From sequence record MW074885: a DNA stretch of 39,355 nt, one strand, 5' to 3'. How positions within the stretch are numbered: position 1 is the first letter of the stretch; each line of letters opens with the position of its first letter. Source of the stretch: Escherichia phage JB01. Below the pieces are notes generated by a model. It was given only the letters and a program-made list of their open reading frames with translations, had not been told where the DNA came from and searched no databases. This document shows, one piece after another, positions 30,598 to 37,722 of the stretch. Both the position numbers and the translations under genes were made by a program.

Positions 30598-31041
30598 ATG
30601 ATAAGCAAGAAGAAGTATGTGATTGATAAGGAGACTGGCTGCTGGAACTTTAAGGGATGCAGGACGAAGACTGGATATGGTCGCATTCGTGTAAACGGAG
30701 TCCATTGGATGGCCCACAGGTATTCCCTGAGTTGTCATCTAGGCAGACCGATAGCTGACGGAATGGTTGTGATGCACCTGTGTGATAATCCTTCATGTGT
30801 TAACCCTGAGCACCTTAAGGAAGGGACTCAGAAGGAGAACATAGAAGACTGCATCTCAAAAGGTCGCGCAACTAAGGCCACAGGTAAACGTGATGCGTCT
30901 AAGAGAGACCCTAGCGAGGAACGTAAGGCTATAGTGGTTCGTAGATACCATAAAGGCTGGACTGCAACGTCCATAGCGAGATACCATAAGCTCTCTGTGG
31001 CGTGGGTCAAGAGGGTCATTGAGGAGTACCTAAGTGATTGA
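30598..31041 (+). CDS. HNH homing endonuclease (HNH_3-type) with C-terminal HTH-like tail
   Basis: 147 aa; motifs GCWNFKGC, GYGRIRVNG, AHRYS, HLCDNPSCVNPEHL, EGTQ; between gene 19 and phiOR. Confidence 0.8.
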   Translation: MISKKKYVIDKETGCWNFKGCRTKTGYGRIRVNGVHWMAHRYSLSCHLGRPIADGMVVMHLCDNPSCVNPEHLKEGTQKENIEDCISKGRATKATGKRDASKRDPSEERKAIVVRRYHKGWTATSIARYHKLSVAWVKRVIEEYLSD

Positions 31042-31766: not shown

Positions 31767-31779
31767 ATCTGTTACAGTC

Positions 31780-31842
31780 TCCTAAAGTCACCTCCTAAAG
31801 TCACCTCCTAAAGTCACCTCCTAAAGTCACCTCCTAACGTCC
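31780..31842. repeat. 13-bp tandem array tcctaaagtcacc x4 plus a degenerate fifth copy
   Basis: perfect copies at 31780, 31793, 31806, 31819; part of the cctaaag-rich left-end repeat region. Confidence 0.85.
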
Positions 31843-32020
31843 TTCCTAAAGCCTACACCTAAAGACACCATCAAGTCAATGCCTATCTTAAAGTATAGAC
31901 CTAAAGACCATTCCTAAAGACCAGACCTAAAGACACTACATAAAGACCATACCTAAAGACGCCTTGTTGTTAGCCATAAAGGGATAATCTTCAATCATTG
32001 TCTTTAACCATTGTCTTTAT

Positions 32021-32097: not shown

Positions 32098-32126
32098 TTG
32101 ACTTTAAGTCTAACCTATAGGATACT
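32098..32126 (+). promoter_or_regulatory. host sigma70 early promoter A1
   Basis: -35 TTGACT (32098-32103), 17-nt spacer, -10 GATACT (32121-32126). Confidence 0.8.
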
Positions 32127-32223: not shown

Positions 32224-32253
32224 TTGACAACATGAAGTAACATGAAGTAAGAT
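32224..32253 (+). promoter_or_regulatory. host sigma70 early promoter A2
   Basis: -35 TTGACA (32224-32229), 18-nt spacer, -10 TAAGAT (32248-32253). Confidence 0.75.
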
Positions 32254-32334: not shown

Positions 32335-32363
32335 TTGACAACATGAAGTAAACACGGTACGAT
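32335..32363 (+). promoter_or_regulatory. host sigma70 early promoter A3
   Basis: -35 TTGACA (32335-32340), 17-nt spacer, -10 TACGAT (32358-32363). Confidence 0.75.
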
Positions 32364-32469: not shown

Positions 32470-32520
32470 TAGATAGTGGATAACTCAAGGGTATCGCAAG
32501 GTGCCCTTTATGATATTCAC
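32470..32520 (+). promoter_or_regulatory. RNase III-type processing site, copy 1 (R0.3-like)
   Basis: gataactcaagggtatcgcaaggtgccctttatgatattcac; core at 32483-32508 repeated at 32837-32862. Confidence 0.5.
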
Positions 32521-32545
32521 TTAACTACTAAAGGAATCACACACA

Positions 32546-32830
32546 ATGCGCTTAAGTAAAGAGACAGCAATAGCTATGCGTCAAGCAATCAAATCCAGAG
32601 CAGCTCACAACGTGGGAGGTCTTGGGGATGTTGTACGGACGTATAAAGCTAAAGGTCTAACATTCCGCCGCTTTATGTGGGACTGTTTCCACGCTGTAGG
32701 CTTTAACGAGACAACCCGAATAATCGCTGAGCATAACACGGTGACAGTGATTGGAGGGCATATAACAGATGTGAACGATGCACACATTGAGACAATGCTC
32801 AAGGTTGCACTTAAAGACTTGAAATATTAG
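32546..32830 (+). CDS. hypothetical early protein upstream of ocr (no T7 counterpart)
   Basis: 94-aa ORF, ATG at 32546; first gene after A1-A3; flanked by duplicated processing-site element; no family recognised. Confidence 0.7.
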   Translation: MRLSKETAIAMRQAIKSRAAHNVGGLGDVVRTYKAKGLTFRRFMWDCFHAVGFNETTRIIAEHNTVTVIGGHITDVNDAHIETMLKVALKDLKY

Positions 32831-32876
32831 TGATAAACTCAAGGGTATCGCAAGGTGCCCTTCATGATTATCATTG
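32826..32876 (+). promoter_or_regulatory. RNase III-type processing site, copy 2 (R0.3-like)
   Basis: gtgataaactcaagggtatcgcaaggtgcccttcatgattatcat; near-identical to copy 1. Confidence 0.5.
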
Positions 32877-32903
32877 ATTAACAACACTATGAGGTGACAC
32901 AAG

Positions 32904-33254
32904 ATGGCTATGTCTAACATGACTTACAACAACGTTTTCGACCACGCTTACGAAATGCTGAAAGAAAACATCCGTTATGATGACATCCGCGACACTGATG
33001 ACCTGCATGATGCTATTCACATGGCTGCCGATAATGCAGTTCCGCACTACTACGCTGACATCTTTAGCGTAATGGCAAGCGAGGGCATTGACCTTGAGTT
33101 CGAAGACTCTGGTCTTATGCCGGACACCAAGGACGTAATCCGCATCCTGCAAGCTCGCATCTATGAGCAACTCACGATTGACCTCTGGGAAGACGCTGAG
33201 GACTTACTGAACGAGTACCTTGAGGAAGTCGAGGAAGAGGAAGAGGAATTATAA
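32904..33254 (+). CDS. ocr: gp0.3 Ocr DNA-mimic anti-restriction protein
   Basis: 116 aa [27 protein letters not shown]..., highly acidic with [10 protein letters not shown] tail. Confidence 0.93.
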
Positions 33255-33256
33255 TC

Positions 33257-33397
33257 ATGGTCAAGTATGGTCTAACAAAAGAGATGATTCAGACGTACCG
33301 CGTAGCGATGGCTTATGGTGCTTCTTTCGGGTACTGCATGGCACAATTAGCACAGACATATCGAGCACGCAAAGCGATGTACGGTAATAGTAAGTGA
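33257..33397 (+). CDS. gp0.4-like small early protein (possible FtsZ inhibitor homolog)
   Basis: 46-aa ORF directly after ocr; weak resemblance to T7 gp0.4 (..GYCMAQLAQTY..); below the ORF-track cutoff. Confidence 0.5.
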   Translation: MVKYGLTKEMIQTYRVAMAYGASFGYCMAQLAQTYRARKAMYGNSK

Positions 33398-33445
33398 TAG
33401 ACTCAAGGTCGCTCCTAGCGAGTGGCCTTTATGATTATCATTCTA
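33398..33445 (+). promoter_or_regulatory. RNase III-type processing hairpin (R0.5-like)
   Basis: actcaaggtcgctcctagcgagtggcctttatgat: inverted repeat cgctc/gagcg with the shared flanks. Confidence 0.45.
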
Positions 33446-33459
33446 TGAGGATTAAACGC

Positions 33460-33630
33460 ATGACGACTGGAATCATTATGGCAACCTTTGCAGTAATCGT
33501 AGCTATGGGATGGCGTAGCGCTGCGTTGGAGCGCTCAAAGTTCCTTAAGCAACGTGATGCACTGCTCGCTAAGTTGGACGCTGAGGGGCGCGGTAAGGAA
33601 GCTCTGGAGGCAATAAAGTGCTATCGCTAA
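33460..33630 (+). CDS. 0.5: gp0.5-like small membrane protein
   Basis: 56 aa from ATG at 33460 (MTTGIIMATFAVIVAMGW...); ORF-track start at 33394 lies inside the hairpin. Confidence 0.65.
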   Translation: MTTGIIMATFAVIVAMGWRSAALERSKFLKQRDALLAKLDAEGRGKEALEAIKCYR

Positions 33631-33815
33631 TTATCATCACTGGTTACGCTCTAATCCTATACGTGTTCCTTAGAGACTTCCGCAAGGGTATAAAGGTCCA
33701 CAAAGCAACGCTAAGTTACTTTAAATACGGATTCCTACCACGGTTTACGGTACGTGAGCACAACGGGCGCTTTAAGGCGAACAAAGTAGGCATCTTTTAC
33801 GTAGCAACTAATTAA
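33618..33815 (+). CDS. hypothetical small membrane protein at the gene 0.6 position
   Basis: 65 aa, GTG start with ggagg SD; N-terminal TM segment [17 protein letters not shown]; not like T7 0.6 as I recall it. Confidence 0.5.
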
Positions 33816-37674: not shown

Positions 37675-37722
37675 ACAAACTCAAGGTCATTCGCAAGAGT
37701 GGCCTTTATGATTGACCTTCTT
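37675..37722 (+). promoter_or_regulatory. RNase III-type processing hairpin (R1.1-like)
   Basis: actcaaggtcattcgcaagagtggcctttatgat. Confidence 0.45.

Follow-up and report, generated by a model that had tools for sequence, protein, structure and literature searches.

A hairpin-bounded 94-residue gene ahead of ocr in the early region of a T7-like phage

In T7-like phages, the leading few hundred bases of the genome, which reach the cell first, are the site of the counter-defence genes. At this location, the genome of Escherichia phage JB01 (MW074885) carries a small gene that precedes ocr and is bracketed by two copies of the same processing-site-like element. This arrangement leads us to ask how the gene might be expressed, how it reached its position and what its product might do. 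The DNA that we analysed, referred to throughout as the window, is the whole stretch of 39,355 nucleotides, and it represents the genome of a T7-like phage (Teseptimavirus) in circularly permuted form.

The first early gene and its flanking hairpins

The left-end and early region of the window is about 90-92% identical to the corresponding DNA of LNA7, JeanTinguely, T7 and their relatives in a collection of 50,697 phage records, none of which is identical to it, and from the phiOL promoter through A1-A3 and on to the first RNase III site it aligns base for base with T7 and 13a. A consensus scan, together with alignment to the annotated T7 and 13a promoters, places the host RNA polymerase promoters A1, A2 and A3 on the plus strand at 32098-32126, 32224-32253 and 32335-32363. 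The original prediction for this locus, made from the sequence, had described an open reading frame at 32546-32830 as the first gene downstream of these promoters. The open-reading-frame list gives the same 94-residue translation, and because the sigma-70-like sites align with T7 A1, A2 and A3, the frame is indeed the first gene 3' of the host promoters.

This cargo gene lies on the plus strand, begins with ATG and encodes a protein of 94 amino acids (~10.6 kDa) that is a member of PHROG 9817. Its leader (32522-32545, plus strand), as read from the sequence, holds AGGA at 32532-32535, a Shine-Dalgarno sequence at the correct spacing from the ATG, and a comparison of flanks finds it similar to that of the Klebsiella phage mtp14 homologue. 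The TAG stop falls within the 5' arm (lower stem) of the downstream hairpin described below. The second gene here is ocr (gene 0.3; 32904-33254, plus strand), whose product is 98% identical to T7 Ocr, and a gene 0.4-like ORF (33257-33397, plus strand; phrog_5058) shares an RNase III segment with it. Reference T7 was compared for both the frame and the duplicated element: it lacks the ORF and, as had been stated, has a single R0.3 site that gene 0.3 follows directly.

Other parts of the window hold features of separate interest. Just right of the terminal repeat, 31779-31960 consists of 13-nt CCTAAAG-containing repeat arrays, with four near-perfect copies of CTCCTAAAGTCAC and then degenerate ones, which match the known left-end repeat region of T7. 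Near the right end of the genome, before the terminal region, a 147-residue HNH endonuclease ORF (30598-31041, plus strand; phrog_6254, E = 8e-60) looks like a homing-endonuclease-type insertion, and T7 is without it. Two small plus-strand ORFs occupy the interval between the R0.5-type site and the 0.7 kinase, one at 33460-33630 (phrog_25811, with a hydrophobic N-terminus) and one at 33618-33815 (phrog_2385). Neither matches T7 0.5 or 0.6A by BLASTP, and the pair is another early-region module replacement.

The 26-mer ACTCAAGGGTATCGCAAGGTGCCCTT is present exactly twice in the window (32483-32508 and 32837-32862), against an expectation of 0 in 100 shuffles, and the similarity extends over 46 nt at 87% identity (32474-32519 and 32828-32873). 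Each copy had been proposed to sit inside a processing-site-like hairpin, and each does form the core of one that folds like T7 R0.3 and R0.5, with a lower stem, an asymmetric internal loop, a 9-bp upper stem and a tetraloop. The upstream hairpin (32475-32521, plus strand; upper stem 32487-32495 / 32500-32508) is the equivalent of T7 R0.3 and matches T7 860-903 exactly over 44 nt (GGATAAC...ATTCACT); its fold has an energy of -23.3 kcal/mol (z = -2.9). The downstream hairpin (32826-32878, plus strand; upper stem 32841-32849 / 32854-32862) folds at -22.6 kcal/mol (z = -5.0) and is a chimera in which an R0.3-type upper stem is set within an R0.5-type lower stem. It is the same as T7 R0.3 in the upper stem and on the 5' side of the internal loop, and its lower stem reads GTGATAA / TTATCAT where R0.3 has GGATA / TATTC, so that both sides have changed together and pairing is kept.

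Four sites of this arm type occur in the window: the two around the ORF, one at 33401 and one at 37679. The third belongs to an R0.5-equivalent hairpin (33387-33446, plus strand), recognized by its fold and arm pattern, which marks the next module boundary. The fourth same-arm hairpin (37679-37712, plus strand) lies just 3' of gene 1, is the equivalent of T7 R1.1 and shows that the junction sequences recur outside the 0.3-0.7 region. When 26 sites drawn from 14 phages are aligned, the predicted consensus has 17 base pairs, nine of them with compensatory double changes, and the lower-stem pairs of the downstream hairpin are among those that covary. Such compensatory changes indicate that RNase III-type hairpins are conserved structured elements. 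The arms are conserved between sites as AGTGATA[A/G]ACTCAAGG and CCTTTATGATTATCACT, and the upper stems vary. A search of the hairpins against Rfam returned no family; R0.3 itself is annotated as a feature in the Yersinia phage R/Y and T7.1 records. Dunn and Studier reportedly mapped the early RNAs of T7, including the RNase III processing sites R0.3 and R0.5. In T7, RNase III cuts on the 3' side of the internal loop of each processing hairpin.

If the window follows T7 biology, host RNA polymerase starting at A1-A3 would read through the cargo region, and RNase III would be expected to cut the internal loop of each hairpin. Cleavage at both hairpins would make the 94-codon ORF a monocistronic mRNA of roughly 350 nt with a protective 3' hairpin, and the ocr-0.4 transcript would retain a T7-like 5' end, processed at an R0.3-type site, together with its own 3' hairpin. 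The suggestion that the ORF and ocr were given separate processing sites thus agrees with the predicted folds and with the correspondence to T7, in that each gene has its own R0.3-type hairpin.

Junctions of the cassette and the same slot in other phages

Colinearity of the window with T7 and 13a ends at ...ATGATATTCACT (window 32520), and the three diverge immediately afterwards. The left breakpoint is therefore directly 3' of ATTCACT, just past 32520, and both breakpoints fall within the conserved arms of the hairpins. The DNA of the cargo is closest to that of Teetrevirus phages (mtp14, 90%; PGX1, 85%; F5M1C, 81%).

Phage 13a (EU734174) has the same slot 5' of gene 0.3, filled there by gp0.45. 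The gp0.45 family is found in 151 phage records, and in nine other records examined (mostly Teetrevirus-like) it is located further downstream in the early region, past 0.3. The deposited gp0.45 CDS of 13a (903-1142) begins at a GTG inside the R0.3 hairpin; an in-frame ATG at 945, which would give 65 residues, is the likelier start and opens the part that is conserved in 151 other phages. We found no direct treatment of gp0.45 in the literature. In AV103 (Teseptimavirus) and P694 (Berlinvirus), a SAM lyase gene lies upstream of ocr. The cargo gene itself also takes the first position in some metagenomic DNA; scans of IMG/VR and of metagenomes for relatives provided 4 and 3 loci only. One contig, L005 (ERZ13616944), has an arrangement identical to that of the window, with a protein 96% identical. 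A 38.9-kb human-gut contig, L020 (the same as L026), encodes an 89% identical protein first after R0.3, followed by a different hairpin and then by an ocr product 56% identical. A pattern scan of fifteen loci and the window finds the same arm type at module boundaries, and an IMG/VR scan for the downstream-junction 22-mer gave 0 matches.

The original prediction had viewed the gene as a cassette gained by recombination at the processing site. Much of that view stands, since the gene is extra relative to T7, its slot is bounded by hairpins and the breakpoints are in the arms; the slot itself is not unique, being on record in 13a. We regard the cassette reading as well supported on sequence evidence, given that the same slot holds other cargo in 13a, AV103 and P694 and that the gene itself occupies early, hairpin-flanked positions elsewhere.

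The most likely source of the module would be a common pool of Studiervirinae early genes. We infer two staggered crossovers within conserved arm sequences of the hairpin DNA (AGTGATAAACTCAAGG and CCTTTATGATTATCACT). One would lie 3' of the R0.3 upper stem and the other 5' of it, which would have left an R0.3 core on each flank. At pseudo-palindromes, T3 and T7 have been documented to recombine within 8 bp of homology (PMC3276506), and this precedent makes the conjectured two-crossover route mechanistically reasonable. With two crossovers only, the model needs compensatory changes or a further conversion step to account for the R0.5-type 3' arm of the downstream hairpin. Even so amended, the model suggests that the hairpins might act as portable junctions through which early genes could swap both position and genome.

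Judging from these comparisons, a rule worth carrying forward is that the arms of RNase III hairpins are the points at which early-region modules break and rejoin. It pictures the early region as rebuilt from genes that move as units bounded by RNase III hairpins, with breakpoints in the conserved arms. The rule might be used to predict further accessory early genes, and also to choose insertion sites for engineered T7-like phages at which native mRNA processing would be preserved. Our literature search found no work that directly treats recombination at RNase III sites in T7-like phages.

The PHROG 9817 family and its protein

No family had been recognized for the 94-residue protein when the locus was first described. 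A sequence family does exist, and the protein is a full-length match to PHROG 9817 (E = 7.3e-38; residues 1-94 against profile positions 1-93 of 94), for which we use the name F94; the part of the earlier statement that survives is that no relative with an assigned function was found. Proteins of this family are present in 61 deposited phage records by tblastn, all of them Studiervirinae where taxonomy was checked, with hosts in Escherichia, Klebsiella, Yersinia, Serratia, Citrobacter, Enterobacter, Pantoea, Salmonella and Hafnia. F94 is always an early gene in these 61 records. All 31 aligned relatives match PHROG 9817, and the family is small, with 25 proteins at E < 1e-3 in a profile search of 1.84 billion representatives. 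A tblastn search of plasmids gave no homologue.

The usual gene order is Ocr or SAM lyase, 0.4, hairpin, F94, hairpin, 0.45, 0.5, 0.6 and 0.7. In eight genomes or contigs, F94 is instead the first early gene: the window, L005, L020, L031, L015, L016, the Kayfunavirus Vec13 and the Przondovirus Oda. A SAM lyase gene follows directly in Oda, and F94 also precedes a SAM lyase in L015; in L031 it is 29% identical and adjoins ocr. The Logan contig L016 (from SRR15675003; 2643-3116) has an F94 that is 43% identical in the 0.3 position, with a gp0.4 homologue directly after it, and its early region holds no detectable ocr or SAM lyase.

We printed the flanks of ten F94 copies (window, L005, PGX1, mtp14, F5M1C, E-4, phiCFP-1, AP10, Vec13 and Oda). 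In all ten, an RNase III-type hairpin and then a short leader precede F94, and in nine the F94 stop runs into the next hairpin, the remaining copy being that of Oda, where no recognisable hairpin follows the stop. Separate reads of other contigs found hairpins on both sides of F94 in L020, L031 and L032 and only an upstream hairpin in L015 and L016; in L034, neither flanking hairpin was recognisable. Given that the family is already catalogued, that 13a is a published precedent for the slot and that the F94-first order recurs elsewhere, each established by sequence comparison, the locus is not a new kind of system.

Several records of family members deserve mention in their own right. In Yersinia phage AP10 (KT852574), the full 94-residue ORF is intact at 1342-1626 and is annotated only as a 51-residue C-terminal fragment (1471-1626). 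In phiYe-F10, the 94-residue ORF at 1578-1859 is likewise intact and has no annotated feature. Record MT350293, named 'Enterococcus phage EFA-2', contains a T7-type R0.3 site and a 79% identical F94, and its Enterococcus faecalis host label looks doubtful. The neighbours of the distant members P0041, P0053, P0057, P0061, P0040 and P0047 are unannotated small phage genes that offer no functional clue. Three longer proteins, P0046, P0048 and P0059 (481-762 residues), are built of ~35-residue repeats (…VK.F…GLT.[ED]KY…C.K.P.LF…); we rejected them as relatives, since their weak profile matches (E 1e-7 to 6e-4) arise through the repeated helix-GLT-helix and were judged motif-level or spurious.

The F94 protein is under purifying selection, with dN/dS values of 0.10-0.29 between the window protein and eight homologues. 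Conservation extends over the full length of the protein among relatives from 100% down to 25% identity, and R42, W45, D46, D78, I81 and T83 are invariant or nearly so across that range. AlphaFold2, supplied with the 31-sequence alignment, gives five models that agree with one another (pLDDT 91.8-93.6, pTM 0.83) and predicts a compact fold of five helices and a short beta-hairpin. The protein was said not to be acidic like Ocr, which is correct for the window, where its pI is 9.7; members of the family span pI values of 5.8-9.7 and thus share no consistent charge signature.

Efforts to attach the protein to a characterised family gave little. It has no match in Pfam or NCBIfam, and a Pfam scan of 31 members produced only scattered single matches at E > 0.02. 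A PADLOC scan found nothing significant, its Cas8b match (E = 0.011 over 45 residues) being taken as noise. Searches of 5.8 billion and 1.84 billion proteins found no annotated relative of F94, and a literature search found no treatment of the family. Foldseek searches of the PDB with two models of the protein returned nothing, and in BFVD the sole significant Foldseek match (E <= 0.001) was a 50% identical homologue from Hafnia phage yong1, the remaining weak matches being to unnamed or uncharacterised proteins. Across Pfam, NCBIfam, PADLOC, PDB sequences, Foldseek and BFVD, nothing emerged beyond the family itself and no member carries an assigned function, which tells against the favoured explanation.

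Specific identities were considered and set aside. An Ocr-like DNA mimic (PF08684) is contradicted by the pI of 9.7 and the lack of a Pfam match, and the true ocr is the next gene. The protein likewise has no Pfam match to SAM lyase (PF23780), whose gene is a separate neighbour of F94 in L015, Oda and mtp14. A narrow profile matched the N-terminal DNA-binding domain of T4 DNA ligase (5wfy / 6dt1) at E = 0.015, and the local alignment (GGyItDvnd..ie.l.kva.kdl against TGYITDGKKDDVEVLRRVMMRDL) looked suggestive; we rejected this reading because a broader profile lost the match and Foldseek against the PDB never recovered it. The protein is without recognisable enzyme or DNA-mimic features.

Possible roles, competing readings and known systems

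In our judgement, with a probability of roughly 55%, the best explanation is an RNase III-delimited early-gene module that fills the first slot of the class I operon and encodes a small binder or inhibitor, with anti-defence as the favoured function. As its genomic context suggests, the 94-residue protein would bind a conserved Enterobacterales protein stoichiometrically and inhibit it in the first minutes of infection. On positional grounds, a plausible anti-defence role, as an accessory of Ocr or SAM lyase, is favoured, with general host takeover close behind. From context only, we put counter-defence at roughly 35%, general host takeover at 30% and nucleic-acid binding at 10%, and assign the rest to no role. 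That F94 adjoins ocr or SAM lyase across deep divergence is suggestive, and it is weak evidence because the whole early region has only about 6-8 genes. Also to be counted against anti-defence is that F94 has no plasmid homologues, unlike many anti-restriction genes. Nevertheless, a conserved and selected gene that is recurrently first, and beside ocr or SAM lyase in several genera, is a candidate for anti-defence and takeover screens.

There is a real but lesser chance that F94 is a general host-takeover factor that inhibits a housekeeping target in division, the cytoskeleton, transcription or RNA decay, in which case the architecture of the locus would be unchanged. The protein is small, early, accessory and not enzymatic in appearance, and in most genomes its gene sits among 0.4, 0.5 and 0.6. 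The order in L016, where F94 directly precedes a gp0.4 homologue in a phage without ocr or SAM lyase, points the same way, and hosts that span many Enterobacterales genera fit a conserved housekeeping target. However, nothing ties F94 to any such target, and its patchy spread (61 records against hundreds of Studiervirinae genomes) and mobility are equally typical of counter-defence genes.

A bolder proposal, which we consider rather unlikely in its full form, treats PHROG 9817 as a new counter-defence class with a fold not in the PDB. As the very first product of infection, such a protein might protect or complement Ocr and SAM lyase, or neutralise a PARIS-like sensor, and the RNase III hairpins would form a cassette-exchange system loosely like integron attC sites. 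If this were true, the palindromic arms would let counter-defence genes swap slots and genera, with each cassette bringing its own mRNA boundaries.

The direction of change at the junctions might also be reversed, although we hold this to be unlikely. Under such a history, the two-hairpin cargo slot is the older state, the single R0.3 of T7-type genomes results from deletion between direct repeats, and the window kept or swapped its cargo. The direct repeats that flank the cargo (about 27-46 nt) are a suitable substrate for exact deletion to a single R0.3 and ocr. The chimeric downstream hairpin is common to the window, L005 and 13a despite two different cargos, which suggests one old slot with later exchange of cargo. 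Moreover, the cargo-less phage Bas102 has the same ocr-leader allele (AACAACACTATGAGG) as the slot-bearing phages, and Kayfunavirus and Przondovirus also place F94 first. Against this history, a single site is present in nearly all of the 190 phage records matched by the R0.3 region, and of the sixteen sequences scanned (fifteen loci and the window) only the window, L005 and 13a have a second copy of the R0.3 upper stem. Both the cargo and its leader are nearest to Teetrevirus DNA, which argues for lateral arrival.

Two further readings of the protein fare worse. It is doubtful that F94 is a nucleic-acid-binding regulator whose helix-turn-helix-like or ligase-DBD-like domain acts on phage or host DNA or RNA. 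The basic pI of the window protein (9.7), the helix-GLT-helix segment at residues 25-51 and the weak narrow-profile match to the T4 DNA ligase N-terminal domain (5wfy, E = 0.015) would be in keeping with such a function, but the ligase match is gone with the broader family profile, Foldseek does not recover that domain, pI within the family falls as low as 5.8 and the HTH Pfam models match none of the 31 members scanned. The notion that the ORF is non-functional and that the locus matters solely for its duplicated hairpins, for instance as additional stabilisers of mRNA, is effectively refuted by full-length conservation down to 25% identity, a dN/dS of 0.1-0.3, a Shine-Dalgarno sequence at the right spacing and a confident predicted fold, its only encouragement being the incomplete annotation of some records (phiYe-F10, with no feature, and AP10, with its 51-residue fragment).

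Returning to the favoured reading of a hairpin-delimited module that encodes a small inhibitor, it is useful to compare the locus with systems that are already known. In protein character, the closest parallels are the small host inhibitors of T7 (gp0.4, gp0.6, gp2, gp5.7, gp1.2, gp4.5 and gp5.9), which F94 resembles in size class, early timing and accessory status. Among these, gp0.4 acts on FtsZ, gp0.6 on MreB, and gp2 and gp5.7 on RNA polymerase. Stoichiometric binding of a host protein is presumed for F94 by analogy with them, although F94 differs in having no detected sequence or fold similarity to any of these proteins. Homologues within PHROG 9817 occur in Teetrevirus, Apdecimavirus, Kayfunavirus and Przondovirus phages, with 49-88% identity in phiCFP-1 (YP_009205654), Vec13 (gp01, YP_009807324) and Oda (YP_011108696). 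The Teetrevirus type differs from the window in placing F94 after 0.3-0.4. In Kayfunavirus and Przondovirus, F94 is first as in the window, but the hairpins differ and the R0.3 core is not duplicated.

With respect to the slot, AV103 and P694 are alike in that the first position, between two RNase III-type hairpins and adjoining ocr, holds an accessory early gene. Their cargo, however, is a characterised anti-restriction and anti-BREX enzyme, and their two flanking hairpins differ from each other in the upper stem. Phage 13a provides the nearest match: it has the same backbone, an identical upstream R0.3 hairpin and left breakpoint, and a downstream chimeric hairpin and ocr leader near-identical to those of the window. 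It differs in its cargo, which is an unrelated protein of 65-79 residues from another early-gene family (BLASTP E = 8.8 against the 94-residue protein). Finally, both copies of the element in the window have the bipartite stem with internal loop that is typical of T7 R0.3 and R0.5. Whereas T7 has one R0.3-type upper stem, the window has two, and its downstream copy pairs the R0.3 upper stem with an R0.5-type lower stem.
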